Shown here in pieces: positions 2,361 to 56,221 of a DNA stretch of 64,000 nt. Both the position numbers and the translations under genes were made by a program. Where the stretch lies: NCBI GenBank assembly GCA_043803015.1, contig JAZDKK010000023.1:20946-84945 (forward strand), in the 5' to 3' direction. This DNA is from Verrucomicrobiota bacterium (GTDB taxonomy: Bacteria > Verrucomicrobiota > Kiritimatiellia > CAIQIC01 > JAGNIJ01). How positions within the stretch are numbered: the stretch's first letter is position 1; every line of letters starts with the position of its first letter. The notes under the pieces were generated by a model. It was not told the DNA's origin, did not search any database, and saw only the letters and a list, made by a program, of their open reading frames with translations.

Positions 2361-2875
2361 CTCGCACAACGGATTCAACGTCCAACATCCAACTCTCAAC
2401 GTCCAACGTTCAACGGGACGCCAAACGTGCGCCCGAGAATAGCATTACTGCTTGGGTTTTCTAGCTGTTTTGATGGAAGAGACAAAGATTGCGATCAACT
2501 CATCTGTTTCCGTGAGGAGGCCGTCGAGTCTCGACACCGGCTTCAGCAGAGGCACCCGCTTACACAGCCGGAGCCACCGGTAGGACTCGCGCAACTCCTT
2601 GAGGCAGACTTTTATCTTGTGGATGAAGTCACTGCGCGACTCCGCCGCCTGGGCCTCGCCATGATTCGGCAGGGGCGAGGTGCCGGACCTCAGCAGCTGG
2701 TTGGCCACGTGATTCCCCGCCCGCGTCGAAGGCAATGCTTCAACCAGCCGGATGATCCTTGCGGCGTATTCGAGCAGGCGTTCCTCGAGGTCGAACTTCC
2801 GGACCGATTTCATGCTCCCCTCCTCGTTCGATGTTGGACGTTGGGCGTTGAGCGTTGGAAGTTCAATCCGTTCTA
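2361..2875. mobile_element. putative inverted-repeat-flanked mini-cassette carrying the four-helix-bundle gene
   Basis: An imperfect inverted repeat of ~50 bp sits at 2367-2417 and again in inverted orientation at 2820-2870. The left arm is AACGGATTCAACGTCCAACATCCAACTCTCAACGTCCAACG. Both arms are built from CAACG/TCCAAC 6-7-mers and exactly bracket the 369-bp gene. Confidence 0.4.
2445..2813 (-). CDS. four-helix-bundle protein (TIGR02436 family; formerly 23S rRNA intervening-sequence protein)
   Basis: 122-aa protein MKSVRKFDLEERLLEYAARIIRLVEALP..ANQLLRSGTS.. that matches the family signature; start is the ATG at 2811-2813. Confidence 0.8.
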   Translation of the reverse strand: MKSVRKFDLEERLLEYAARIIRLVEALPSTRAGNHVANQLLRSGTSPLPNHGEAQAAESRSDFIHKIKVCLKELRESYRWLRLCKRVPLLKPVSRLDGLLTETDELIAIFVSSIKTARKPKQ

Positions 2876-4033
2876 CAGCCGATGCGCCGCGTCCCGGATG
2901 AACCTCGATTCGGAGCCCTCGGACTCGCCGCCGACCTGGCGCGCGATGTTGACGAGGACGCCGATCATGGCGAGGGACATGACGAGGCTGGAACCGCCGA
3001 AGCTGATGAACGGGAGCGGCAGTCCCTTGGTCGGGAGGCTGCCGGTGACGACGCCGATGTTGATGGCCGCCTGGAGCGTGATCATGAGCGTGACCCCGAA
3101 GCCGAGCAGCTTGCCGAACTGGTCGGGGGCGCAGAAGCTGATGCGCACTCCGCAGAGGAAGAGGCCGAGGAACAGGAGCACCACCGAGAGCGAAGCGGTC
3201 AGGCCCAGCTCCTCGCCGATGATCGCGAAGATGAAATCCGTGTGCGCCTCGGGCAGGTAGAAGTGTTTCTGCAGGCTCTGGCCCAACCCGACGCCGGCGC
3301 CACCGCCGACCACGAAGGCGTAGATGGCGTTGAGGAGCTGAAACGCCTCGTCCTTCGCGTACCGCTCCGGGTTCAGGAACGCGGTGATGCGGCGCATGCG
3401 CTCGGCGTTCTACATGATGGCCAGGGTGAAGCCGGCGAGGCCGATCACGCCGGCGATCAGCAGGTAGCTCGGCCGCGCGCCCCCGACGAACATGATCGTC
3501 ATCCCGACCATCGCCACGAGCATCGTCGTCCCGAAATCCGGCTCGATGAAGATCAGACCCAGCAGGAGCCCCAGGCCGGCCAGCGGCAGCAGGAGCCCGC
3601 GCCCGAGCTCGCCGGCGTGGCGCTGGATGCGCGCCATCCACCACGCGAGGAAAACGACGGCGGCAAACTTCGCCAGTTCCGACGGCTCGAACGTGACCGG
3701 CCCGACGCGGATCCAGCGGCTGCTCCCCTTCACGTTCAGCCCGACGCCGGGGAGCAGCGCCATGATGAGCAGGGCCGCCGTGAAAAGCATGAGGGGGACG
3801 GCGAGCGGGCGCCAGTAGTGATAATCCGCATGCGACGTCGCCAACAAGGCGATGAACGCCACGACCAGCCAGGCGATCTGCCGCTTCAGAAAGTAGCCGG
3901 GATCGTCAAACTGCGACTTCCCCTGGACGCCGCTCGTGCTGGCCAGCATCACAATGCCCACGGTGACCAGGATGAGGACGATAGCGATCAGTATGCTGAT
4001 GGTCTTCCACATCGAACAACCGGACCCGCTCAA
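2873..4033 (-). pseudogene. ftsW: FtsW/RodA/SpoVE-family (SEDS) peptidoglycan polymerase interrupted by an in-frame TAG at 3410-3412
   Basis: Two minus-strand ORFs, 3410..4033 and 2873..3397, are in the same frame. The N-terminal part is transmembrane. The C-terminal part carries MRRITAFLNPE..YLPEAHTDFIFAIIGEELG..LPTKGLPLPFISFGGSS, the hallmark of FtsW. Only the TAG plus 4 codons (NAER) separate them. Confidence 0.75.
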
Positions 4034-4102
4034 AACAAACCGACCGCCCCGAAGTCGTCGGACGTCAGGACGGTCGGAGCTGTTCTATCGTTCACAGAAA
4101 GC

Positions 4103-4987
4103 TTACAGGGCCGTCGGCGGAATTCTCAGCTTCTGCCCCGGCTTGACACTCGCCGCATCCGAGATCCCGTTCAGCTTCATGAGATCGTCCTGACGCACCA
4201 GGAACAGCTTCGCAATGGACTCGAGCGAGTCGCCCGGCTGGACCGTGTAGTCGAGCGGCTGGTCCTGCGAAGAAACCTTGGGCTCCGCCGGGGCCGGCAT
4301 CGGCGGGGGCGCCATCTCGACTTTCGGCGCGGCGGCCGCCGGCATGCCTTCCAGCGACTCGGGGGCCAGCGGCCTGCTGGTGGGGATGATGAGCTTCTGC
4401 CCTACCATGATCTTGTCGCCCTTCAGCTGGTTGGCTTCGCGCAGGGCACCGAGCTTGATGCCGTGCCGGGAGGCGATCTTCGAGAGGTTGTCGCCCGCCT
4501 GGACCACGTAAGCGTTCCCGCCCTCGGGAACCGCGGCCGCAGGAGCCGCCTCGGGCTTGGCGGCCTTCTTCTTGTGCACGGGCGCCGCGCCGGGCGGCAC
4601 CGGCTTCGCGTACTCCGGCAAAACGATCTTCTGGCCGACGCGGATCTTGTTGGCATCCTTGATGCCGTTCAGCTCGGCGATCTCGCGCGAGCTCACGCCG
4701 AAGCGGCTCGCGATCTTCGAGAGCGAATCGCCGTTCTGCACCGCGTAGGTCCTGCTCTCGGCGGGCACCGCCATGGACGGCGCTGGCTCCACGGCCACCG
4801 GGGGCTGAATCGAGGGCTTGAGCACGGTCGGGGTGCCCGTTTCCGTCTTCGGCGGCATCACGGGCGTCGGCGGGGGTTCGACCTTGCCGGCACGCTTCGT
4901 CGTGCCGCACCCCTGGATACACACTACCGCGCTGACCGCCATGATATGTACAGCAACAACAGCAACCACTAGTATCGGGGCCCTCAT
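4103..4987 (-). CDS. LysM-repeat lipoprotein (three LysM domains separated by Pro/Ala-rich linkers)
   Basis: The start MRAPILVVAVVAVHIMAVSAVVCIQGCG is a signal peptide plus lipobox. It has three copies of the YxVQxGDSLSKIAxRxG..L..N LysM motif. An RBS GGAGACAC lies upstream of the ATG at 4985-4987. Confidence 0.8.
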   Translation of the reverse strand: MRAPILVVAVVAVHIMAVSAVVCIQGCGTTKRAGKVEPPPTPVMPPKTETGTPTVLKPSIQPPVAVEPAPSMAVPAESRTYAVQNGDSLSKIASRFGVSSREIAELNGIKDANKIRVGQKIVLPEYAKPVPPGAAPVHKKKAAKPEAAPAAAVPEGGNAYVVQAGDNLSKIASRHGIKLGALREANQLKGDKIMVGQKLIIPTSRPLAPESLEGMPAAAAPKVEMAPPPMPAPAEPKVSSQDQPLDYTVQPGDSLESIAKLFLVRQDDLMKLNGISDAASVKPGQKLRIPPTAL

Positions 4988-5043
4988 TCTGTGTCTCCTT
5001 TCTGAAACGGGTTGTAGCATATCGTTCCAAGTCATTCCGGAGT

Positions 5044-6387
5044 TCATGCGGCTTCCTCCTCGGCCAGGTCTTTGACGAGTTGCGCGAAACGCTGCCCACG
5101 CTCCTCGAAGTTCCGAAACTGGTCGAAACTCGCGGTCGCGGGCGACAACAAGACCGTTTCGCCGGCGCGTGCATCGGCCCTTGCTCTCCTGACGGCTACA
5201 TCGAGTGTGCCGCACCGAAAGCAAGGAACGACATCGGACCAGGCCGAGGCCATAGCCTCCGTTGCCAGCCCGATAAGGTAAACACCCAGCACCTTTTCCG
5301 CCAGCAATTCTTTAACAAAACCGAAATCTTTTTCCTTGACAAGTCCACCAGCGATGAGGCGCACCCTGCCGGGGGACATCCGAAGCGCCGCCGACATCGC
5401 CGACAGGTTCGTGGCTTTCGAATCGTTGATGAATCGGACGCCCGAAAACTCGGCCACCAACTCCGTGCGGTGCGGCAACGGCTCGAACGCCCGAGCCGCG
5501 CGGACCACGCAACCCGCATCCGCACCGCACGCCTCAATCCCCGCCACCACCGCCGCCGCGGTGACGCCCAGGATCTCGTTGCCGAAGTAGGTGCCGCCGA
5601 CGTCCGCCAGGACTTTCCCTTCGCGCGTGATGCGCCCGGCCTCGTACCGGTAGTCGGCCGCCGCGGTGCTCCCGAACGTCCGCCACACGCCGCGCCCGCC
5701 CGCCAGCGGGCGAACGGCCGCCGCGAGCGACTCGTGGACAATACAGACATCCTTCTCCGTCGTGCGGGAGAAAAGGCGGGCCTTCATGCGCGCGTAGGTC
5801 GGCAGGTCCCCGTGCCGGTCCAGGTGGTTCGGGTTGATGTTGAGCAGAATCCCAACTTCCGGCCGGAAGTCGCGCACCGTCTCCAGTTGGAACGAGCTCA
5901 CCTCGAGGACCAGCCAGTCCAGGTCCCGCCGTTCCCGCACGACTTTCGACACCGCCGGGCCGTAGTTCCCTACCGGCGCCGCCTTCAGCCCCGCCTGCTG
6001 GAGCGACTCCGCGAACCATTTGACCGCCGTGCTCTTGCCGTTGGAACCCGTGATCGCCACGGTTCTTCCCGTGCGCCGGCTCCAGCCGAGCTCCAGTTCC
6101 GACACCACGGGCACCGCGCGACGGCTCATGTCGGCGATCCAGGGAGACGCCACGGGAACGCCGGGGCTCACCACGCAAAGGTCGAACGCGCCGTCGGGGA
6201 CACCGGCCGCCCCGAGGAGCACGCGAGCGCCGAGACCTTGAAGCCGCTGCGCGCGGGCGCGAAGCTCCGGGCTGTCCGCCTTGTCGATCGCCGTCACCTG
6301 CATTCCCTCGGCCTGCAGGAGAGCCGCGGCGGCTTCGCCGCTGTCGCCCAAGCCGAGGACCAGCGCTTTGGAGCCGGACTGCATCAT
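5044..6387 (-). CDS. murD: UDP-N-acetylmuramoyl-L-alanine--D-glutamate ligase
   Basis: 447 aa. It has the Mur ligase central motif GSNGKST, and MurD-like N- and C-terminal domains. Confidence 0.95.
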   Translation of the reverse strand: MMQSGSKALVLGLGDSGEAAAALLQAEGMQVTAIDKADSPELRARAQRLQGLGARVLLGAAGVPDGAFDLCVVSPGVPVASPWIADMSRRAVPVVSELELGWSRRTGRTVAITGSNGKSTAVKWFAESLQQAGLKAAPVGNYGPAVSKVVRERRDLDWLVLEVSSFQLETVRDFRPEVGILLNINPNHLDRHGDLPTYARMKARLFSRTTEKDVCIVHESLAAAVRPLAGGRGVWRTFGSTAAADYRYEAGRITREGKVLADVGGTYFGNEILGVTAAAVVAGIEACGADAGCVVRAARAFEPLPHRTELVAEFSGVRFINDSKATNLSAMSAALRMSPGRVRLIAGGLVKEKDFGFVKELLAEKVLGVYLIGLATEAMASAWSDVVPCFRCGTLDVAVRRARADARAGETVLLSPATASFDQFRNFEERGQRFAQLVKDLAEEEAA

Positions 6388-17614: not shown

Positions 17615-18400
17615 ATGATGCGCCGGTTCCTCGCGCTTCTCCTTCTGGCCTGGCCCTGCACCGTGCGGGCGCAGACCGCCACGAATCTGATCCAGCTCCA
17701 GCGTCAGGCCGCTGCGTTCTCGGTGAATCCCCCGCACGAACAGCGGGGCTACTTCGCCGCGGGCGCACAGCTGCAGGTCCTGGGTCCGGCGACCGGCGGC
17801 ACGGTGCGCGTGCGGTGCACCACGTCGGACGGCCGGATCATCGAGGCCCTCTGCCGCGCCGCGGACCTCGGCTCGGCCCCCCCCACCCCTTCCGCCTCCC
17901 CCTCACCGGTCGTCCCCCGGTCCGCCACGGTCCCGGTCGGCCGGACCGTCCCGGGAAGCATCTACGAGAACCCCGAGTGGCTGGAGGACAGTTTGGGGCA
18001 CAAGCTGGCGGTGGAGGCGCAAGCGAGATTCGATGTGAAGATGATTGTGTTCTTCTACGCGGACTGGAACGAGGAGTGCGAGCTGTTGTGGAAGGAGCTG
18101 CTCAGCGACCGCGAGTTCAGGCGGCAGACGAGGAATCTCATCAAGGTGCGGATCAACCCGGAGCACGGGAAGGCGGAGGGCCTGCTCGCGCGGTACTACC
18201 GTTTGCGGAAATATCCGACGACGTTCGTCGTTCGCCGGCCTCATGCCGAACCGAAGTACGTGGACCTCACGTACTACTCGTTCGGGAAGCTCAGGGTCTC
18301 CAAGCTCGACTACGCGATCGCCGATATCCTGGCCGCCGGCACCACGAACATGCCCGCTTGGCGCCATCCTTCGGTCACCAACCAACCGCCAACCCCCTGA
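17615..18400 (+). CDS. secreted thioredoxin-fold protein (degenerate CxxC: WNEEC)
   Basis: Signal peptide MMRRFLALLLLAWPCTVRAQ. The thioredoxin-like segment is KMIVFFYADWNEECELLWKEL..PTTFVV. Confidence 0.55.
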   Translation: MMRRFLALLLLAWPCTVRAQTATNLIQLQRQAAAFSVNPPHEQRGYFAAGAQLQVLGPATGGTVRVRCTTSDGRIIEALCRAADLGSAPPTPSASPSPVVPRSATVPVGRTVPGSIYENPEWLEDSLGHKLAVEAQARFDVKMIVFFYADWNEECELLWKELLSDREFRRQTRNLIKVRINPEHGKAEGLLARYYRLRKYPTTFVVRRPHAEPKYVDLTYYSFGKLRVSKLDYAIADILAAGTTNMPAWRHPSVTNQPPTP

Positions 18401-18401
18401 T

Positions 18402-18472
18402 CGGCCTCGGCCTCGGACTCGGCCTCGAAGCGCCCAGGAAATCGAGGCCGAGACCGAGTACGAGACCGAGGG
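18402..18472. repeat. hexamer-periodic (CCTCGG/CTCGNN)n hairpin after the thioredoxin-like gene
   Basis: The left arm CGGCCTCGGCCTCGGACTCGGCCTCG and the right arm CGAGGCCGAGACCGAGTACGAGACCGAGG form an imperfect ~27-bp stem with a 15-nt loop, right after the stop at 18398-18400. Confidence 0.5.
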
Positions 18473-18550
18473 AACAACTTCCCTGTCCCTCCCAACCTCC
18501 GAGGAAGACCAACCGCGGATTTCGCGGATTGCACGGATAGGTAATGCGGA

Positions 18551-18610
18551 GTGGACCTCTGGTCCTTCCGTTTGCCCTTTGCGCTCTCTGCGTTCTCTCG
18601 CGGCAATTCC
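18551..18610. repeat. intergenic repeat family X copy
   Basis: GTGGACCTCTGGTCCTTCCGTTTGCCCTTTGCGCTCTCTGCGTTCTCTCGCGGCAATTCC, compared with 17484-17541 and 24216-24262. Confidence 0.5.
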
Positions 18611-18679
18611 TCTTTCGGCGAAGGCGCGAAGGAATAAGGGAAGGCGAACCGCGGACTTGTCCGCGGTGGCGGATTTCCT

Positions 18680-18727
18680 CGAAGCAGATGCTTCGCATCG
18701 CTTCGGGGCACGGCACGGATTTCACGG
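18680..18727. repeat. left boundary inverted repeat of the low-GC island
   Basis: CGAAGCAGATGCTTCGCATCGCTTCGGGGCACGGCACGGATTTCACGG matches the reverse complement of 24143-24189 at ~45 of 50 positions. The related segment 18525-18560 matches the reverse complement of 24110-24155. Confidence 0.5.
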
Positions 18728-18800
18728 GCGCCTGCGATCTGCCCACCTCGCACGCCTAATTTGCAACTCAATCACCGGCCCCGTTTTGGAGACTGCTATT

Positions 18801-19688
18801 CTAATTCTCCTTCAAGCTCTTCTCGTACTGGATGAACTCGTCTGATTCGAGGATCTCCCGGAGGTAGGACGTCGGTACGACAAGGGAGATCTTCCCCCCG
18901 GTTGCGTCAGACAACCCACCGCTGAGGATGCCGACGAAATGAAGCTCTTCTCCGCCCTTCATCCGCTGTCCGGCGATACTAACGTTCGACATGATGTCTT
19001 CAGTGTAGAACACAGGAGCTCCGCTGTATCCCTGGGCGAGAGCCTGATCGAGAAGGATGAAGAGAAGTTCAGATGATACGTTCGGGTTATCTACCGATGT
19101 AAGCCTGCTTGCTATACGAGTTTCCTTTGCCAATGGGCTCAGGTTCTGTTGAACACCTTGTCCCAAGGGAAACCCCAAAACATATGCTGCTGTCAGTAGG
19201 GGAATCTCCTTCTTCTGCTGCGGGAAGAGGTCCTCGCCAATCACTATTTGTTCGGAATCCGTTGGGTAGCAGAGTGGGTGAATGGAGATGTCGGCTTTCG
19301 GGTGATGAAACCATCTTGCCCCTTTGATGATCTGTTGTTGCGAAATCCACTCAAACGTGAGGCTCGTGCTCTTGCCCCCAGAGAGATTCATAACGATCTC
19401 TGCTTTGGCTGAAAGGGCCTTGGCGACATGCTTTGCGGTGACGAGGTAGTCACTTCCATGATATCGGATTATGAGTCCTGATCCTGACATCACGTCCAGT
19501 TTCGGCTCCAGTTTCTCCGTTTCAGGATCGCGGTACCAGACTTCGACTTGCTTGCCACCTTTCATCTCGATCGACTGGGATCGCTGGCGCAAGAACACGA
19601 CGGTCTTGCTTAGGCTATCGATTGAAATCGCGTAGGCAGTCGCATGAAGTGAAAGACCTGCAAACAGATAGAGCAAGAGTCGTTTCAT
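18801..19688 (-). CDS. secreted trypsin-like (S1 family) serine peptidase
   Basis: The start is MKRLLLYLFAGLSLHATAYA (signal peptide). There is a His motif VTAKHVA and a Ser motif GYSGAPVF (GDSGGP-like). Local GC is ~50%. Confidence 0.7.
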   Translation of the reverse strand: MKRLLLYLFAGLSLHATAYAISIDSLSKTVVFLRQRSQSIEMKGGKQVEVWYRDPETEKLEPKLDVMSGSGLIIRYHGSDYLVTAKHVAKALSAKAEIVMNLSGGKSTSLTFEWISQQQIIKGARWFHHPKADISIHPLCYPTDSEQIVIGEDLFPQQKKEIPLLTAAYVLGFPLGQGVQQNLSPLAKETRIASRLTSVDNPNVSSELLFILLDQALAQGYSGAPVFYTEDIMSNVSIAGQRMKGGEELHFVGILSGGLSDATGGKISLVVPTSYLREILESDEFIQYEKSLKEN

Positions 19689-19790
19689 ATGGTACTTCCT
19701 TTGTGTATCGTGTTGTCTTCCCAACAATGCGGCTGAGTTTCGTTTCTTCCGCCGCGGAAAAAACACAGACTCCAGCCGCTGGTCGGAGGC

Positions 19791-20300
19791 TCAATTCTCC
19801 CCGCCAACAAGCGACACACTGCGTCCGCGAACAACCAAGGCTTTAGATCCCTTGTTTCTTGCGGCTAGTTCCGCCGCGTCTTTGCAGGCGTTCGTTTTAT
19901 CATCAAGGGGTTCGGGCACATCAGGCGCGAAATATTCAAGCGAGTATGCCGTGAGTGCCGGCTTGTCGATCTCATCCGTTTTCACTTCGATAATCCACTC
20001 GCATTCGCTTCGAGATTTGTAGCCGCTCTGCTGTTTGAATGTGTCCGTGCCGTAGTACTTCTGGCCAGCTGAATCTGTGACTTCAAAGGCGGACTTGAGG
20101 GTGCCAAAAAATTGGACGCCGTATTGAGTTGTTTTGACAGTGATCAGATACACCCTCTTACCCGCTGCATCTTTCCCGAGGTTTCGAGAAACCGATCCGA
20201 TATTGGCATGGGCCTTCGACGCGGCGATTGCGTCGCGGCAACACATGGTACCGACCAGGCAAACCACCAGACACGTAACGATAGTCGTCTTTGTCTCCAT
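19791..20300 (-). CDS. hypothetical lipoprotein
   Basis: METKTTIVTCLVVCLVGTMCC.. is a signal peptide with lipobox. RBS AGGAAAGGGG. The gene is low-GC. The longer ORF-track version, 19791..20489, runs into repeat A. Confidence 0.5.
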   Translation of the reverse strand: METKTTIVTCLVVCLVGTMCCRDAIAASKAHANIGSVSRNLGKDAAGKRVYLITVKTTQYGVQFFGTLKSAFEVTDSAGQKYYGTDTFKQQSGYKSRSECEWIIEVKTDEIDKPALTAYSLEYFAPDVPEPLDDKTNACKDAAELAARNKGSKALVVRGRSVSLVGGEN

Positions 20301-20353
20301 TTCGATCCCCTTTCCTGCAACGTCTGCCTTCAGCATCCGTAGTCTGGGGTAGT

Positions 20354-20632
20354 CCGGGGTCGAACCATAGCTTTCTCTAGAGCACCAACCACTTATGACT
20401 CCCAGAACCCACTTTTCACCCCTTACAGCTTCTTTTTCAGCCCGAAAATCGCTGCTAAGGCTCCCGTTCCTTGCGCAACACCCTCCCACCCGCGCCCTTG
20501 GGAGCTCAAGACGTGGCCGAAAAGAGCCTGTAAGCCCCCGTCTTAGCCCCTCTTGCCGTCGTAGGTCGTTGCCTGCCTAGACCGACCTGCTGCGCCTCGC
20601 CGAAGCCCCGGGCGAAGGCGGGTGGTCCAACC
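20354..20632. repeat. MITE-like repeat copy A (TIR CCGGGGTCG.ACC)
   Basis: Over 20375-20590 it shares ~85% identity with 22150-22365 (TCTAGAGCACCAACC..GCTCAAGACGTGGCCGAAAAGAGCCTGTAAGCCCCCGT..). It sits immediately 5' of the gene starting at 20300. Confidence 0.6.
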
Positions 20633-20649
20633 TCGCCATCCTGTCTTCT

Positions 20650-21339
20650 TCATCCTTCAATCCACCATCTCTGAGGTCCTGGCAGGGGAAGTGAGCTCGC
20701 GATCTGGTTGACAGCTTCAGCTGCGGACCGCACCAATCCTTTCATCCAGTCAAAATGAAAACAGATCTGTTTGTAGTGCTCTGTGGATGGCGAGGACTCG
20801 GTCACGTTTACATAGCTGACATTTGCCTTCCTGTCGGTCATGGGTCTGGAAGTGGCGAACTTGCCGAGCGAGTAGTTGTGGACAAGGCCGCAACGCGCTT
20901 CACGGTAGAGAAGGTGCGCGTAGCTGAATTGCCGCAATTGTTCCTTGGAGAGTTGGGGGCATTCTATGAGAAGGTCGTCTTCCATGCCGTCAGCGTCGTC
21001 ACCTGTAATAATCAACGCGTGATGCGGTGGTAGGTACTTCTGCCGGATTGAATCTGCGGCCTGTCGTTTGATGGGGTCTGTGTCGCGTGCGAATTCCTGA
21101 ACTAGCATCGCCGTGCTTATGAACTGCGTTTGGAGGGTTGGTTTGCAGTAGGTGACAAGGAGTTCAACGAAGCGCTTGCGATCGATTCTCTCGCCCGGCC
21201 AGACGAGCGAGGCGATTCCACTCAACACGGCAAGAAGTAGGATTACGGCCTCAGGGTAGCCTGCGTCGCAGGCTCCGTCGGCGAGTCTCTCTGCGATGCC
21301 GATGCGGTGCAGGGCGAATTTGTTGATCCAGTCATTCAT
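20650..21339 (-). CDS. hypothetical protein with a possible HEPN-like Rx4H motif (RCGLVH)
   Basis: 229 aa: MNDWINKFALHRIGIAERL.. It has no recognisable family. The HEPN suggestion rests only on the Rx4HxY pattern and the island context. Confidence 0.45.
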   Translation of the reverse strand: MNDWINKFALHRIGIAERLADGACDAGYPEAVILLLAVLSGIASLVWPGERIDRKRFVELLVTYCKPTLQTQFISTAMLVQEFARDTDPIKRQAADSIRQKYLPPHHALIITGDDADGMEDDLLIECPQLSKEQLRQFSYAHLLYREARCGLVHNYSLGKFATSRPMTDRKANVSYVNVTESSPSTEHYKQICFHFDWMKGLVRSAAEAVNQIASSLPLPGPQRWWIEG

Positions 21340-21349
21340 GTTTCCGCCT

Positions 21350-21456
21350 CCGGGGTCCTCCGGGGTCGGACCACAGGTTCCTCTAGAGCACCAACCAGTT
21401 ACAGTTCCCAGAACCCCGCTTAGCGTCCAAGTGGGGTTCGCCTTCTACGACCCCGG
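21350..21456. repeat. MITE-like repeat copy B (short form, ~107 bp)
   Basis: It starts CCGGGGTCCTCCGGGGTCGGACCACAGGTTCCTCTAGAGCACCAACCAG and ends CGACCCCGG. It sits immediately 5' of the gene starting at 21339. Confidence 0.55.
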
Positions 21457-21506
21457 CAGGAAACGCAGACTTCAGACACAAGATCGAGCCTTGGTCTGGC
21501 TAACGC

Positions 21507-21710
21507 CTAGGCGTGGAAGAACTCGATCAGTTCTTCCCAGCTCTTCCTCACGCCGTTTCCTCTACGCGTCCGGCCAGCGCACCACTCGATTGTGGCCCTG
21601 CCGATTCGGAGGTCACCTAGGTGTTTGTTCTGGCCGTCGTACACATCCAGTTCAATGCCGTTGTTCCCAATCTCCATACTAACCTGGAACTCCTTCACGC
21701 TAACCTTCAT
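21507..21710 (-). CDS. hypothetical small protein (67 aa)
   Basis: MKVSVKEFQVSMEIGNNGIELDVYDGQNKHLGDLRIGRATIEW.. It may be co-transcribed with 21808..22080. The start position is within +/-1 nt by my reading. Confidence 0.35.
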   Translation of the reverse strand: MKVSVKEFQVSMEIGNNGIELDVYDGQNKHLGDLRIGRATIEWCAGRTRRGNGVRKSWEELIEFFHA

Positions 21711-21807
21711 GTTATCCTCCCTGCTTCGTCGCTTGAACGTTACGGGCGGGCCGGCCGCAAGACCCGTTCGATGGCAGCCTTCACTCGCCCCGTGGCCCGC
21801 ACGTCAA

Positions 21808-22080
21808 CTATCTCTTCTTGGGGCGACCGGGGCGATTATGCGGGACGAGCCGCTTGACTTGGCTGAAGCCTTGGTCAAGTTGTTCGAACGCCTGCCGGGC
21901 GCCATCCTTCCTCCCTTGAATGTACACGGCTTGCATGATCTGGGCGAGTTTGACGCCTTCGTACAAACTGGCATTCCTGACAATGTCCTCTACGGCTTGC
22001 ACCAAACGCCTCCCGGCGTACAGCGTTAGCTCAGTGGTTGCCAATGCGACTTTGACGGTCTTGAAACCGCGTTTGCCCAT
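21808..22080 (-). CDS. hypothetical small protein (90 aa), possibly an RHH/antitoxin-like DNA-binding protein
   Basis: MGKRGFKTVKVALATTELTLYAGRRLVQAVEDIV.. RBS GGAAAGGAGAG. The antitoxin idea comes only from its size and position upstream of a second small ORF. Confidence 0.4.
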   Translation of the reverse strand: MGKRGFKTVKVALATTELTLYAGRRLVQAVEDIVRNASLYEGVKLAQIMQAVYIQGRKDGARQAFEQLDQGFSQVKRLVPHNRPGRPKKR

Positions 22081-22104
22081 GATAGCTCTCCTTTCTTCTC
22101 GCGT

Positions 22105-22384
22105 CCGGGGTCGGACCACCCGCCTTCGCCAGAGGCTACGGCGGGCACGACAGGTTGCTCTAGAGCACCAACCAGTTACAACTCCCAGAACCCCGCTTTT
22201 CACCCCTTACAGCCTCTTTTTCGGCCCGAGAACTGGCCGCAAGACTCCCGTTCCTCAGGCAGCACCGCCGCTCACGCCCTTAGAAGCTCAAGACGTGGCC
22301 GAAAAGAGCCTGTAAGCCCCCGTTTTGGCCCTTTTGCCGTCGTAAGTCGTTGGCTCCCTAGACAGACCTGTGGTCCGACCCCGG
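22105..22384. repeat. MITE-like repeat copy C (full form, with terminal inverted repeats)
   Basis: The left end is CCGGGGTCGGACCACC.. and the right end is ..CCTGTGGTCCGACCCCGG. A nested ~30-bp insert, CCGCCTTCGCCAGAGGCTACGGCGGGCACG, lies in the left TIR. It sits immediately 5' of the gene starting at 22080. Its right TIR encodes the last 8 codons of the 22358..23092 gene. Confidence 0.6.
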
Positions 22385-23092
22385 CAAAACACCTTGTTTC
22401 TCTGGCATGGCTTTCAAGTACTCGTCCGACTGAATCACGAGATCGATCCAGTTGACTGTCATGTTCACGAGTGCCTTGAGATCCCTGAGATCCTTCTCTT
22501 CCCATTTTCTCGTGTAGTGCGTTTCATCATTCCCTAACCATGCGGCACGCTTCGCGCAGTGCTTGATGCGATCTTCGTCAATGAACTGCTCGATGCATGT
22601 GGCAAGAAATGCCTTGGCCACCGCCGCAGCCTTTGATGCATCGCTTCTGAACTTATAGTGGATGATGAAGTCCTTAATCAGGAACTCTAGCGACTTGCGA
22701 TATCCCGGACCGGCAATCTGGTCCAGGCCGTTTTCCTCGGCCACGAGCGACTGGTTGTATGTCGTGCAGAAGACAGGGGAGAGCTTGGCAACCGCGTCGG
22801 GGAACGTCACGGCGTTCGCGGCGCGGAGTATCGTTGTTTCCACGAGATTGCACATAGCGTTCTGGACGGAGGTGCTGCGGGTATTGTAGGCGGCGATGAA
22901 CATCTCCTTGCAATCGTCAGCGGGACATATGAAGGAGACGCGGATCTTGTGATCTCCTTCGCTCAGGTAGTGCCCGATAATGGGTTGTGGCTTCACGGAT
23001 GTCTGGCATGCAGGGCACGTGTCGGGAAACTTGTTGATGCTGATGATGTGCTGCTGTCCCGTTTCATCCACGGCTGTGATTTGGTGCGGCAT
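22358..23092 (-). CDS. zinc-finger plus DUF4145-type (HEPN-superfamily) protein, candidate abortive-infection/defence component
   Basis: The N-terminus has CPAC..CPADDC. The C-terminus has ..DRIKHCAKRAAWLGNDETHY.. which fits the DUF4145 R..GN...H signature. Confidence 0.55.
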   Translation of the reverse strand: MPHQITAVDETGQQHIISINKFPDTCPACQTSVKPQPIIGHYLSEGDHKIRVSFICPADDCKEMFIAAYNTRSTSVQNAMCNLVETTILRAANAVTFPDAVAKLSPVFCTTYNQSLVAEENGLDQIAGPGYRKSLEFLIKDFIIHYKFRSDASKAAAVAKAFLATCIEQFIDEDRIKHCAKRAAWLGNDETHYTRKWEEKDLRDLKALVNMTVNWIDLVIQSDEYLKAMPEKQGVLPGSDHRSV

Positions 23093-23152
23093 GTTCTGGT
23101 TCTCCTGGAGCTAACGTCAAGAATCACCGTGCCCTGAACCTGCGCAGCAGGT

Positions 23153-23419
23153 TCAGGGCACCGTGGATTCTCTGGTTCGGCCGTGTTTGGTCTCGAAGGA
23201 TCTGAATCTTGACTTCCCCTCCTTGCGCAAGGACGCCAATTCCTTCTCAAGCCACGCGATCTGTGCGTCGAGTTCCTCGTAAGTCACACACTCGGCGCCG
23301 AGTAAGGTGTGGCGACCTTCCGTGAATCGGCATTTCAGACGAATGTGGGCGCGGGGTCGGCCGGGGAGATCGCCTTTACGTGGGGTTTGAAACAACAAGC
23401 CGAAGTATAGCGTCCTCAT
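23153..23419 (-). CDS. hypothetical small protein (88 aa)
   Basis: MRTLYFGLLFQTPRKGDLPGRPRAHIRLK.. Its start overlaps the upstream membrane-protein stop (ATGA at 23416-23419). Confidence 0.35.
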   Translation of the reverse strand: MRTLYFGLLFQTPRKGDLPGRPRAHIRLKCRFTEGRHTLLGAECVTYEELDAQIAWLEKELASLRKEGKSRFRSFETKHGRTRESTVP

Positions 23420-23847
23420 TCGTTCCTCCTTCTGATGGCGCTTCGCACAACTTCTGCGAGAAGCAGCAACAATCCCACTGACAAGGTGATCCAGCCTCTC
23501 CCCCATTCGGCACCTTGGTCGGCAATCTTCGCAAATGATGCGACAAACCGGTCACTGGCATTTGCCAATCCGAGCACTCGGTGGGCGGCTGCGTGGTAGC
23601 TGAAGATGGCCCACGCAAAACCCCCGAAGGCAAGAAGACAAAGTGGTCCGGCGATGCGTTCTCGGCCGGTAAACCAGAAGTAGAACGAGAGAACGCCCAC
23701 GGCTGAGAGGAAGAGCGCGCAGAAGGGATCTAATGTCCAGAGGACTGTCCCACCAAAAAGGGCATGCTCTTCTACCCTAATCCGCGGTGCGAGCGCGAGG
23801 ATGACCGATCCGATGAGCCCGAGACCATGCGTTTGTTCTTCTGGCAT
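23416..23847 (-). CDS. hypothetical membrane protein (3-4 transmembrane helices)
   Basis: 143 aa with hydrophobic segments IGSVILALA, LWTLDPFCALFLSAVGVLSFYFWF, LCLLAFGGFAWAIF and ITLSVGLLLLLA. Confidence 0.5.
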   Translation of the reverse strand: MPEEQTHGLGLIGSVILALAPRIRVEEHALFGGTVLWTLDPFCALFLSAVGVLSFYFWFTGRERIAGPLCLLAFGGFAWAIFSYHAAAHRVLGLANASDRFVASFAKIADQGAEWGRGWITLSVGLLLLLAEVVRSAIRRRNE

Positions 23848-24142
23848 CTTTGTTCTCCTGCAGAACAGTTTGCATTACTCAGTTAGGTTCACGCTTCCCT
23901 ATCCCTGCCGAATCCGGTGCCAGGCCAACCGTTGCCTATCCTGGCTGAGGTTGTCTTCCCCTCCTGCCGCGATCCGGATGCAGTCCGCCGTAGCGGGGGC
24001 GAGTATAGCGGGAGGGAGGGAAGCGCGCAATGCGCGCTTCAGGTTCAGAGTTCAAGGTTCAACCCGCCTACGGCGGGCAAGCATCGAACTAGGAAGCAGG
24101 CGCGTAGAAAGGAGGATCGGAGGTCCACCCCATGTTACCTAT

Positions 24143-28376: not shown

Positions 28377-31300
28377 ATGGACCCGGGGCGGAACTGCAAG
28401 GTATGCGGAGCAGCGCTTCTTGACGACGCGCGGGAGGGACTTTGTCCCGTGTGCCTGCTGATCGGCGGGTCGAAGGCGGCAGGCGACGAGGGCGAACCGG
28501 CTGCCGCCGACGCGAACCAGGAAACACTCTCCCTCGTCGACAACCTCTGGCACGAGACGGTCCAGGGCACGGCGACAGCCGAGACGACCCTGAAGTCCCC
28601 GCCGTCCACGGATACGGCGGCGCCGCCGGCCGAATCCAGCCGGCTTTGCCTTCGCGCCCAGGAGGTCTCCAACGCAAAAGCCCCCGTGGTTCCCCCCGCG
28701 CACTACGAAGTCGTCCGCACGATCGGCGAGGGCGGCATGGGGACCGTGTACGAGGCACGCCAGACGTCGGCAGACCGGGTGGTCGCCATCAAGGTGATGA
28801 AGACGGGTCCGACCCGCGGCACGGAGCGGCGGGAAAGATTCCTCAGCGAGGCCGCGGCCACGGCCGACCTGGAGCATCCCAACATCGTGCCGGTGTACGA
28901 GGTGGCTACGGACCGGCAGGGCGTGCCGTTCTACGTGATGAAGCGCGTGCGGGGGGTTCCCTGGAGCCAGGTCCTTCGGCTCAAGAGCCTGACAGACAAT
29001 CTTGAAGTCCTGCTGAGGGTGGCGGACGCGGTCTCCTTTGCGCACAGCCGCGACGTCATTCACCGCGACCTGAAACCCGGAAACGTGATGCTCGGGGATT
29101 ACGGCGAGGTACTGGTGCTGGACTGGGGGCTTGCCGGTTCCGTGAGCAGGCAGGGCAAGGCGGAGCAGTTGAAGCCCGGATCCGTGCGAGGCGGCACGCC
29201 GGCGTACATGGCGCCGGAACTGGCCAGGGGCGACATCAGGCACACAGGCAAGCACAGCGACATCTACCTCCTGGGGGCCATCCTGTTCGAGATCCTTGCA
29301 GGTTACCCACCCCACCGGGATCCCGACGTATGGAAGAGCCTCGCCCTGGCCGCCGACAACGTCATCCTGCCGACGCGGGCTTCCGGCGAGCTGCTCAGGA
29401 TCGCGCTGAAGGCCATGGCCGCGGACCCTGCGGCCAGGTACCCCACGGTGAAGGACTTCCAGGCCGCGATCCGGCTGTACCTGTCTCACGTGAACAGCGT
29501 GTCCATCGCGTCCCAGGCGCAGAAAGCCCTCGATCGCGCCACGGCCTCGGGCCAATACGACGATTTCGCCGCGGCCGTCTTCGGATACCGGGAGGCGTTG
29601 AGCCTGTGGGACGGCAACGAGGCGGCCGCCGAGGGGCTTTCCGAGGCATGCCGCGCCTACGCCGAGTGTGCGTTGCGGAAGGGGGATGTGGACCTGGCCG
29701 CGTCCCTCGTTTCCGGGGACCGAGCCGAGGACAAGGATCTCGCGGGGCGGATCGCCGGGGCGCGCCGGGAGCGGGATCGGAGGCGGCGGGTCATCCGCTC
29801 GCTGAAGGTCCTGGCGGTGAGCCTTACCGCGGTGGTGGTCATCGTGGTGACGGTGGCGTTCTTCTGGATCCGGGGCGAGCAGGCCCTGACGCTGGCGGCG
29901 AAGAACAGGGCGGAAGGCGCCCTTGCCGCGGAGGAGAAGATGAGGCGCGAGGCGGAAGGGGCCCGGGCTTCCGAGGAGCGATTGAGGATCAGTGCGGAAT
30001 ACGATGCCTACGTGGGCCAGGTGGGTCTGGCCGCAAGCTGCCTCGAGCATGGCGAGGTGCTGGAGGCCAGGCGGCTGCTGGCCGCCTGCGCCCCGAAGTA
30101 CCGGAATTGGGAGTGGGCTTACCTCGCGCGTCTCCCTTTCCTGGACGAGATGACCTACAAGGCCAGCCAGAGGTTTGTCACCCATCTGGCCGTTCTCCCG
30201 GATGGGCGGCGGTTCATCACCGCGGGAGCGAATGGATCGCTCAGGCTGTGGCAGATCGGCACACCCCAGTGCTTGCGCGAGACCCGCGCCCATGCCGGCT
30301 GGGTCGACGGCATGGCCGTCTCGCCGGATGGCAAGTACGTGGCGTCCGCCGCCGGCGACAACCGACTTACCGTGCATCGCGCGGACGATTTGAGTCTTGT
30401 GCGCGAGACGAAGCTACCTGAGAAACACTGCGCTTGCATCGCCTTCTCGCCGGACGGCCGCACCATCGGAGTCGGACAAGAGGGCCTCGTATCGCTGTAC
30501 GACGCAGAGAACGGTACTCTGAAGAAGAGCATTCCCCGAAAAGGTGATGATGTCACGCTCGCCTTCTCTCCCGACGGCAAGAGCCTGGCCACGGGGGGGG
30601 TGAACCCACCACTCGAGATCTACGACATGGAGCAAGGTACGGTCAGGGGGATTGACCGCAGCGATATCCCGTGGGTCCGCTCGGTCAACTTCAGTCCCGA
30701 TGGCAAGAAGTTGCTCATTGCGCCCGGGTTCGGAGGCGCCCTCGTTCTGGACCTTCCAAGCGGCGACGCCGTTCACCTGCGAGGGCATCGGGCGCCGCTG
30801 ACGCGCATCGAGATGCTCCCGGACCAGTCGCTGGTCGCTACGGCGTCCGAGGACACCTCCTGCATCCTCTCGGATCCGGCCACCGGCCAGCCGGTGCGCA
30901 CCTTGCTCGGCCACACCGCGAGGATCACCGCCCTGGGTGTTTGCCCCGACGGCAAGAGGCTGATCACGGCGGGAGCCGACGACGAGATCAAGGTCTGGAA
31001 CATCCGTGGTCCCGACCGGTTCTCCTCGTTCAACATGGGTAACACCGTGCCCCTTTCCCTCGCGTTCTCCCCGGGTTCATCCTTGCTGGCGGTGGGAACC
31101 GCCGGCGGGGGGATCCGAATGCTGGAGACGGCAACGGAGCGCGAGGCAAGCGTCCTGAGTCTTGGGGGATGGATCTTCTCGGTCAACTTCTCGCCGGACG
31201 GGAAGTACCTGCTGGCTGCAGGCGGGTTCGCCGGGTGGGGCAAGGCGTGGCTGTACGACGTTGCGGACCGCTCCAAAATCCGGGAGTATCAGGTATCCAA

Positions 31301-32468
31301 CCGCGACTTCGATTCGGCGGCCATCTCGCCGGACGGGAAGCATATCCTGATGGGCTCGCGCGACGCGGCGATCCGCCTCCTTTCACTTGAGGGTGGGAAC
31401 GTGGAGAAGGTGTTCACGGGCAGTTCCGAGGCGGTGTTGGATCTGGCTTTCTTCCCGGACGGGCAGCACTTTCTGAGCTGTGGCCGCGATGCGACGCGAT
31501 GCTGGGAGATCGGGACGGACCATGAAGTGTGGCGCGCTTTCGAGTTGGGCCAGCCCTTTGCCGTTGCGGTGTCACCGAAAGACAACGTCTTCTACGCGGA
31601 CGGAACTCTGTATCGTGGGGTGGAGCGCGCCAATCTTCACGCCCTGCGCGGGCAACGCGGAACGATTGTTGCGGCCGGCTTCTCCCCGGACGGCGAGCGG
31701 ATCGCGACGGGAAGCAGGGACGGATCCATCAAGATCTGGGATGTCCGCACGGGACGCTCGCTTCTGACCTTGCGGCAACACAGCGGAGAAGTGAAGGATG
31801 TCCGTTTCTCGCCCAGCGGCCTCCTGCTGGCAAGCGCTGGAGCGGACGGGCAGGTCGTTCTCTGGAGGGCCGCGGACCGTGGCTCCCTGGAGGCCAAGGG
31901 ACGCATCGGCGCCGCGCTCGTCGCCGAGACAGAGGCGCCGGCTCCGCTGGCGTCCAACCTGCTCCGCAACGCCGGCTTCGACATCGCCGGAACGCAGGAG
32001 AAGAAAGCGTACGCGTGGGAGGCCGGCAACCCCGATTCCCGCGGGGACGCCTGGGGGGCCGCCTCGAGGGAGTCCTGGCGAGGCCGGAGCGGCGGCTGGG
32101 AAGGGACGATCTGCGGCTCATGGTGCGGAAAGGACTCGGGCGGCTGGTGGCAGGAGGTCGCCGTCAAGCCCGGCCGGCAGTACCGCCTGACCGCCTGGTG
32201 CTACGCGGACTGCGGAATAGCAGGCGCGTGGACGTCCGCATGGCACGGAGCGACGCTCGAGTTCTTCTCGCACGAGGGAAAGGATCGCCGCCCGCTGGGC
32301 GCCGTTTCCAGCCACTTCGGAGTGTTGCAGGAGCAATGGAGCCCCAGGGAGTTGTCAGCCACGGCACCAGCCGGTGCCAGCTGGGCACGGCTGTCGATCC
32401 TCGCGGTAACTAACGGCAACGAAGGGGCACTCCAGTTCGACGATCTCTCCCTGGAAGAAGTTCCCTGA
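28377..32468 (+). CDS. Ser/Thr protein kinase: zinc-ribbon, kinase, transmembrane helix, 14 WD40 repeats (two propellers), C-terminal CBM_4_9-like carbohydrate-binding domain
   Basis: 1363 aa: CKVCG..CPVC, GEGGMGTVYEARQ, HRDLKPGNVML, DWGLA, APE. The transmembrane helix is LKVLAVSLTAVVVIVVTVAFFWI. There are 14 units of the form xFSPDGKxL..G..DG.i.lWd. The C-terminus has ..YRLTAWCY..ARLSILAV..ALQFDDLSL. Confidence 0.9.
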   Translation: MDPGRNCKVCGAALLDDAREGLCPVCLLIGGSKAAGDEGEPAAADANQETLSLVDNLWHETVQGTATAETTLKSPPSTDTAAPPAESSRLCLRAQEVSNAKAPVVPPAHYEVVRTIGEGGMGTVYEARQTSADRVVAIKVMKTGPTRGTERRERFLSEAAATADLEHPNIVPVYEVATDRQGVPFYVMKRVRGVPWSQVLRLKSLTDNLEVLLRVADAVSFAHSRDVIHRDLKPGNVMLGDYGEVLVLDWGLAGSVSRQGKAEQLKPGSVRGGTPAYMAPELARGDIRHTGKHSDIYLLGAILFEILAGYPPHRDPDVWKSLALAADNVILPTRASGELLRIALKAMAADPAARYPTVKDFQAAIRLYLSHVNSVSIASQAQKALDRATASGQYDDFAAAVFGYREALSLWDGNEAAAEGLSEACRAYAECALRKGDVDLAASLVSGDRAEDKDLAGRIAGARRERDRRRRVIRSLKVLAVSLTAVVVIVVTVAFFWIRGEQALTLAAKNRAEGALAAEEKMRREAEGARASEERLRISAEYDAYVGQVGLAASCLEHGEVLEARRLLAACAPKYRNWEWAYLARLPFLDEMTYKASQRFVTHLAVLPDGRRFITAGANGSLRLWQIGTPQCLRETRAHAGWVDGMAVSPDGKYVASAAGDNRLTVHRADDLSLVRETKLPEKHCACIAFSPDGRTIGVGQEGLVSLYDAENGTLKKSIPRKGDDVTLAFSPDGKSLATGGVNPPLEIYDMEQGTVRGIDRSDIPWVRSVNFSPDGKKLLIAPGFGGALVLDLPSGDAVHLRGHRAPLTRIEMLPDQSLVATASEDTSCILSDPATGQPVRTLLGHTARITALGVCPDGKRLITAGADDEIKVWNIRGPDRFSSFNMGNTVPLSLAFSPGSSLLAVGTAGGGIRMLETATEREASVLSLGGWIFSVNFSPDGKYLLAAGGFAGWGKAWLYDVADRSKIREYQVSNRDFDSAAISPDGKHILMGSRDAAIRLLSLEGGNVEKVFTGSSEAVLDLAFFPDGQHFLSCGRDATRCWEIGTDHEVWRAFELGQPFAVAVSPKDNVFYADGTLYRGVERANLHALRGQRGTIVAAGFSPDGERIATGSRDGSIKIWDVRTGRSLLTLRQHSGEVKDVRFSPSGLLLASAGADGQVVLWRAADRGSLEAKGRIGAALVAETEAPAPLASNLLRNAGFDIAGTQEKKAYAWEAGNPDSRGDAWGAASRESWRGRSGGWEGTICGSWCGKDSGGWWQEVAVKPGRQYRLTAWCYADCGIAGAWTSAWHGATLEFFSHEGKDRRPLGAVSSHFGVLQEQWSPRELSATAPAGASWARLSILAVTNGNEGALQFDDLSLEEVP

Positions 32469-56140: not shown

Positions 56141-56221
56141 CGCTACCGCTGCGGCCGGGCGAGAGGGAAACCGTGAGGTTTACGCCCGCTCGGGCAGACC
56201 ACAGGCAGGTGTAGGCAGTTC

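Follow-up and report, generated by a model that had tools for sequence, protein, structure and literature searches.

The DNA analyzed here, a stretch of 64,000 nucleotides (hereafter, the window) from an uncultured bacterium of the Kiritimatiellota type, contained on its minus strand a gene for the SEDS peptidoglycan polymerase FtsW (2873..4012). Translation from the ATG at 4012 gave a frame of 379 codons (4012..2873) followed by a natural TAG terminator (2873..2875), which lies at the same alignment column as the ends of the homologs (...AAHRL). Codon 201 of this frame is also TAG (3412..3410) and is the only internal stop. The minus strand reads GGC TTC ACC CTG GCC ATC ATG TAG AAC GCC GAG CGC ATG CGC CGC ATC ACC GCG TTC at this site, which translates locally as LAIM*NAERMRRITAF. 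A previous sequence-only reading had regarded the open reading frames 3410..4033 and 2873..3397 as the N- and C-terminal halves of FtsW in a single frame, separated by the TAG at 3412..3410 and four codons (NAER). The second one starts from Met206. These coordinates are right, and the list of open reading frames, the translation, and the matches to PF01098 and TIGR02614 all agree with this assignment. The N-terminal fragment (3413..4012, minus strand; residues 1-200) covers transmembrane helices TM1-7 without the catalytic loop and corresponds to positions 4-190 of PF01098. The C-terminal frame (2876..3397, minus strand), whose first codon is Met206 (ATG, 3397..3395; 12 nt past the TAG), covers extracellular loop 4 (ECL4) and TM8-10 and corresponds to positions 201-353. 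Of 3,411 possible single-base substitutions in ftsW, 72 (2.1%) would create a stop codon, but chance is not at issue for this TAG, since it is read directly from the sequence. By descent, the locus is thus an ftsW gene, but with the TAG at codon 201 it encodes no complete FtsW as written. Other open reading frames overlapping ftsW (plus strand, 2855..4972 and 2427..3260; minus strand, 2445..3644) were considered and rejected as high-GC shadow frames; they contained no family matches except for the gene of a four-helix-bundle protein.

The identity of the gene was assessed on the joined product with codon 201 masked as X. It matched PF01098 with 307.8 bits in one unbroken alignment (residues 8-359 on positions 4-353 of 356) and the FtsW model TIGR02614 with 375.8 bits (cutoff 337.5; residues 7-359 aligned to positions 3-356 of 357). 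Scores for the RodA model (258 bits; cutoff 336.7) and the SpoVE model (351 bits; cutoff 448.8) were under the cutoffs. The nearest database proteins were intact FtsW of 378-379 aa with 75%-80% identity from Kiritimatiellia, Lentisphaerota, and "Verrucomicrobia" metagenome-assembled genomes (MAGs). Hydropathy analysis revealed seven hydrophobic segments ahead of residue 201, a loop of 67 residues (200 to 267), and three further segments, and the AlphaFold model obtained from the alignment (pLDDT 80.9, pTM 0.84) contained helices at residues 181-199 and 203-213 joined by a coil at 200-202. Both agree with the 10-helix SEDS topology (7 + 3). In the predicted model, the break would be located in the three-residue coil joining TM7 and the first helix of ECL4, that is, at a domain boundary rather than in the middle of a helix.

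The HMMER alignment to FtsW of P. aeruginosa (PDB 8P1U and 8BH1) was ungapped, with residue 214 of the query corresponding to residue 230 of the chain, and hence 259 to 275; the stop codon 201 falls on residue 217 of the P. aeruginosa chain. Asp259 (codon 3236..3238, minus strand) is within the EAHTDFIF motif, and its column is invariant in the 42-sequence alignment. Residue D275 of the P. aeruginosa protein, with which it aligns, is the catalytic Asp of that enzyme. Since Asp259, the active-site loop, and TM8-10 are all encoded past the stop, an N-terminal fragment of 200 residues would lack them. Overall, the joined product resembles FtsW (TIGR02614/PF01098; P. aeruginosa 8BH1 and 8P1U) in its full-length colinear match above the equivalog cutoff, in the layout of 10 helices with a long loop from helix 7 to helix 8, and in the invariant EAHTDFIF motif together with a location in a division and cell wall (dcw) cluster with ftsI. 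It differs in that its frame is broken by TAG at codon 201; no homolog was found to be broken in this way.

Upstream of ftsW, on the same strand, were rsmH, ftsI, murE, murF, mraY, murD, and a LysM-repeat gene, and downstream of it were a four-helix-bundle gene of the 23S rRNA intervening sequence (IVS) family, ahcY, and a gene for a Ser/Thr kinase. The order rsmH-ftsL-ftsI-murE-murF-mraY-murD-LysM-ftsW-ahcY matches that in relatives, and the context, in which the gene for the cognate class B PBP (ftsI) belongs to the same dcw cluster, is the one typical of FtsW. The previous placement of ftsW inside a dcw cluster was correct as regards the cluster itself, but the gene order shows that ftsW closes a shortened cluster and is not internal to it, being followed by the four-helix-bundle gene and ahcY. 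Compared with the standard dcw cluster, murG, murC, and ftsQAZ were missing downstream, and a LysM gene was present between murD and ftsW, an arrangement also found in relatives. This gene (4103..5047, minus strand) contained three stretches matching PF01476 (167.8 bits), and its ATG overlaps the murD stop (ATGA). Three-LysM-repeat genes between murD and ftsW were conserved in the loci L081-L085 and L090-L093; this arrangement, with the dcw cluster ending after ftsW, is typical of the lineage. A terminator-like hairpin with a T-run (4041..4057, minus strand; a 5-bp stem followed by GTTTGTTTTG) was found in the 90-nt spacer separating the LysM gene from the start codon of ftsW. It is a consensus match only; a terminator here would mean that ftsW has its own promoter or is subject to attenuation. 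The four-helix-bundle gene located between ftsW and ahcY (2445..2813, minus strand) had a strong ribosome-binding site (GGAGG). The closest relatives, L081 and L082, have ahcY directly after ftsW, and a gene of the four-helix-bundle type occurs further downstream in L093.

The consensus of the 42-sequence alignment at the stop site was LAIMQNAERMRRITAF, and the residue aligned with the stop in the 41 close homologs was mostly Gln, in some cases His or Glu. At the DNA level, CAG was present at this position in all nine close relatives compared (loci L001, L002, L081-L085, L086, and L087), representing seven distinct sequences since L082-L085 carry one identical allele. The context ATGCAGAAC (ATCATG-CAG-AAC) is common to L001, L002, and L081, and the window has ATCATGTAGAACGCC. 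The occurrence of CAG in all nine relatives, in three of them in an identical context, points to a single C>T transition on the coding strand, converting the ancestral CAG codon of Gln201 into TAG (G>A at position 3412 of the plus strand). Thus, of the two changes proposed previously, CAG-to-TAG is borne out by nine of nine related DNA loci, while TAC/TAT-to-TAG finds no support because Gln is the majority residue within the close relatives only and the column is variable outside them (H, Q, N, F, L, K, and others over 80 wider SEDS loci). The stop had also been assigned to the conserved aromatic/Gln position of the Y-Q-x-R-x-R-(I/V) segment (YQRQR in RodA); HMMER alignment with E. coli MrdB places it instead on a His located 2-3 residues upstream. 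Stop codons at this position were found in none of the 41 protein homologs and in none of the nine related DNA loci. Met206 is kept in most relatives (RMRR), and therefore the ATG at 3397 was not newly created.

Apart from the stop, the gene showed no signs of decay. The window FtsW retained all 80 of the columns invariant in the 42-sequence alignment and deviated at 2 of the 153 columns with at least 90% conservation among the 41 relatives (for intact homologs, the number of deviating columns is 0-16). The GC content at third codon positions (GC3) was 0.93 in one half of the gene and 0.94 in the other. Decaying pseudogenes are characterized by several lesions and relaxed constraint, neither of which was observed: there is one lesion, and both the conserved residues and GC3 are retained. 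The change is therefore either not real or very recent. The best 120 protein matches to FtsW were all intact or cut only by contig ends. V. spinosum, a relative within the PVC group, cannot do without either of its COG0772 genes (ftsW/rodA), and Kiritimatiellota show conservation of the dcw genes (PMC12283558). Given the strong purifying selection and an N-terminal fragment without Asp259, a true null allele of ftsW should be strongly counter-selected.

An exact-sequence look-up identified the window proteins as GenBank entries MFH0953042-085, described as "MAG: ... Verrucomicrobiota bacterium" and belonging to one contig of 97,722 bp. Among them are the products of ahcY (MFH0953042.1), the four-helix-bundle gene (...043), murD (...045), mraY (...046), and murF (...047), as well as MetRS (...065) and TrxB (...085). 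A single accession (...044) is available between the four-helix-bundle gene and murD, where both the LysM gene and ftsW are located, and neither half of ftsW was present as a protein record in the exact-sequence look-up. Since the numbering leaves ftsW without a protein record, we infer that the depositor's annotation already treats it as a pseudogene; for every other predicted gene the numbering is consistent with a protein record.

Independent copies of the gene were sought in several collections. A sister strain with 96%-99% amino acid identity for MraY, MurF, and an ABC permease was found in short Logan contigs. Full-length, C-half, and N-half queries of the protein collection revealed no ftsW fragment of this strain and no FtsW protein with more than 83% identity to that of the window. 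In the contig index, no exact match was found for either half of ftsW or for mraY or murD, and in the genome-contig scan the best identity among the matches listed was 71%, with no copy of the same species. A metagenome scan with the window's own sequence carrying N at the mutated base yielded no matches, and a wobble-degenerate scan yielded two contigs, both with CAG. When the differences in MraY and MurF between the window and the sister strain were polarized, five changes were window-derived and four sister-derived, which is uninformative but not abnormal.

Disrupted copies of ftsW do occur in metagenome assemblies. Two loci from one study, L088 and the intact L090, have 100% identical ftsW sequences except for about 30 scrambled nucleotides at codons 197-203 (L088:985..1025). 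The scrambled segment amounts to an 11-nt net insertion and splits the gene at the spot of the window TAG; its probable cause is an artefact of scaffolding or assembly. In the Logan contig L093 (1600..2735), ftsW is distributed over three frames, the shifts being located near residues 73-93 and at 203/204. In L094 (900..1533), what remains of ftsW is its C-terminal half, beginning at about residue 199 and adjoining ahcY, and upstream of this remnant there is an alpha/beta-hydrolase gene on the opposite strand. The ftsW genes of L093 and L094 are pseudogenes or parts of chimeric contigs, that of L094 being explained by truncation or a chimera. The closest relative, L081 (the 150-kb ENA contig_13850), has an intact ftsW, but its murE is truncated to 394 aa and followed by a gap (L081:3152..4905), and its murD is in two pieces of 322 and 136 aa (L081:7584..8931); these breaks look like assembly frameshift errors. 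The search with the C-terminal half also found short FtsW proteins starting at or near Met206. A recurrent split of FtsW at the site of codon 201 was considered on this basis and rejected as unproven: P0163, P0136, and P0138 are partial genes at contig edges, and such a query favors fragments that start there, so neither a hotspot nor a conserved split is demonstrated.

Taken together, these data identify the ftsW TAG as a non-programmed single-base lesion involving no special decoding system. We infer that the error lies in the assembled sequence and not in the cells themselves, and assign a probability of about 50% to the TAG being an erroneous base of the MAG consensus that is absent from the living population. 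The organism would then make an ordinary FtsW of 379 aa with Gln at position 201, and the error could have arisen from base calling or assembly, from cytosine-deamination damage, or from the choice of a minority or defective allele by the assembler. A lone lesion in a gene that shows no decay, is under strong purifying selection, and has CAG at this site in all nine relatives argues for such an error, as do the origin of the window from a MAG and the case of L088 and L090, where a single ftsW sequence came out locally disrupted in one assembly and intact in the other. Internal-stop pseudogene calls in automatically annotated assemblies are a known kind of feature, and many of them are assembly artefacts (Cooley & Wright 2024, PMC11017572). 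The window resembles the reported cases (PMC11017572, PMC12516126) in that one premature stop cuts a highly conserved morphogenetic gene in an assembly annotated automatically, with ftsW apparently lacking a protein record; the difference is that these studies dealt with isolate genomes and explicitly left out MAGs, while the window is from a MAG. Several observations speak against a consensus error. The remainder of the window looks clean, with about 40 genes free of frameshifts and splits and an accession numbering that fits protein records for all other predicted genes. The flanking MraY and MurF carry no excess of window-specific changes relative to the sister strain with 96%-99% identity. 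An error at any single site is improbable a priori since the overall error rate is low, and no reads or second assembly of the same species were found in the collections searched.

The same apparent accuracy of the assembly near the site, with about 40 genes lacking other lesions, means that the TAG may match the reads. It is therefore possible, though on balance doubtful, that the TAG is a real and very recent nonsense mutation producing a null or near-null ftsW, which is either transient or covered by another SEDS polymerase (RodA or a second FtsW encoded elsewhere in the genome). GC>AT transitions are the commonest spontaneous mutations. Pseudogenization of ftsI, murE, mrdA, spoVE, and ftsL in otherwise conserved dcw loci has been reported for reference genomes, where it is usually accompanied by a spare synthase pair (PMC12516126), and broken ftsW genes in related metagenome contigs (the frameshifts of L093 and the truncation of L094) point in the same direction. 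On the other hand, constraint is not relaxed, and the mutation would therefore have to be extremely recent. All relatives have the family in intact and highly conserved form, and V. spinosum requires both ftsW and rodA (PMC12283558). A tblastn search revealed no second SEDS gene within the 64-kb window. Moreover, the consensus of a MAG reflects the population majority, and a lethal allele would not be expected to prevail there.

A real TAG that leaves ftsW working is unlikely. Two routes could be envisaged: near-cognate readthrough by tRNA-Gln(CUG), which even at a low level would restore exactly the ancestral Gln201, and re-initiation at Met206, with two fragments (TM1-7, and ECL4 with TM8-10) that would assemble into a split SEDS enzyme. 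That the TAG is both genuine and fixed, with FtsW activity kept by Gln-inserting readthrough or by Met206 re-initiation and a split at the TM7/ECL4 linker, seems very improbable. Near-cognate tRNAs reading UAG can insert Gln, among other amino acids, and since the stop replaces a Gln codon, insertion of Gln would regenerate the ancestral FtsW, as in amber suppression or near-cognate UAG readthrough of the supE type (tRNA-Gln). Basal readthrough, however, is normally far below 10%. The window also differs from amber suppression systems in lacking a suppressor tRNA, a conserved stop, and a stimulatory structure, and in having several genes that end in TAG.

Re-initiation gains some plausibility from the in-frame ATG 12 nt past the stop and from the predicted position of the break in the three-residue TM7/ECL4 coil rather than in the middle of a helix. 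Polytopic membrane proteins with natural or artificial splits can be co-expressed as two fragments, and termination-reinitiation coupling is known in bacteria; the break in an inter-helix linker with a start codon shortly after it is reminiscent of both. However, Met206 is an ancestral internal residue without a clear Shine-Dalgarno sequence ahead of it, and no related lineage shows a conserved split, the 175-aa "half FtsW" proteins being contig-edge artefacts. In addition, the N-terminal tail of the C-terminal fragment, about 62 residues long and starting with Arg-Arg, would need to be translocated to the periplasm without a signal sequence.

Neither route is favored by the decoding signals in the window. 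No tRNA genes, and hence no tRNA with a CUA anticodon, and no matches to Rfam families were found within the 64-kb window, and the RNA fold of 111 nt at the stop was no better than that of shuffled sequences (z = 0.20). The programmed readthrough or suppression that the sequence-only reading had listed among its options is thus unsupported, since the stop is unique to the window and not conserved in orthologs, TAG is a terminator elsewhere, and neither a tRNA nor an RNA signal was found in the window.

TAG is a normal terminator in this genome. It terminates ftsW and at least five other family-confirmed genes of the window, namely ahcY, mraY, and the genes for a 1,441-aa GH57/CBM protein, an ABC-2 permease, and an SLT protein, all of normal length and domain coverage. 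The C-terminal end of MraY is identical in position to that of its 99%-identical copy in the sister strain. The terminal TAG of ftsW itself, at the end column of the homologs, serves as an internal control that TAG means stop here. A stop-to-stop scan revealed no other in-frame TAG in the high-GC3 frames of the window, so in-frame TAGs are not spread over many genes, as a reassigned code would require. Three other pairs of adjacent open reading frames in the same frame were considered as split genes and rejected, since Pfam showed them to be unrelated neighboring genes; no other split gene and no frameshift were found among about 40 window genes examined. Routine reading of TAG through a reassigned code, pyrrolysine, or a dedicated amber-suppressor tRNA is close to refuted: nothing more than an in-frame TAG at a Gln position speaks for it, and against it are the TAG-terminated genes, the lack of further in-frame TAGs and of tRNAs in the window, and the presence of Gln, His, or Glu, not Lys/Pyl, at this site in relatives.

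In its present form, the finding flags the quality of a single MAG base and has little further importance. The lesson is that internal-stop "pseudogenes" of essential genes should be checked against reads ahead of biological inference. If the TAG were true and at high frequency, either FtsW would be dispensable in this lineage of Kiritimatiellota, or there would be a two-fragment SEDS enzyme or efficient amber readthrough; either outcome, if true, would be of interest to the field of cell division.

Several other features were observed in the window. One open frame on the plus strand (56177..64000) is more than 2,607 codons long and continues beyond the window end, has a GC3 of 0.91, and has no Pfam match at 1e-5; by this measure, it encodes a giant protein outside recognized families. 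The GC content of the region at about 18000..24000 is 0.56-0.57, compared with about 0.65 elsewhere in the window. This stretch, which may be a foreign island, includes four minus-strand open reading frames without Pfam matches (18801-19766, 19791-20489, 20650-21339, and 22358-23092). Two other large genes encode a 1,363-aa Ser/Thr kinase fused to many WD40 repeats (28377..32468, plus strand) and the 1,441-aa protein mentioned above, which contains GH57, CBM53, CBM25, and TSP3-repeat domains (36529..40854, minus strand).
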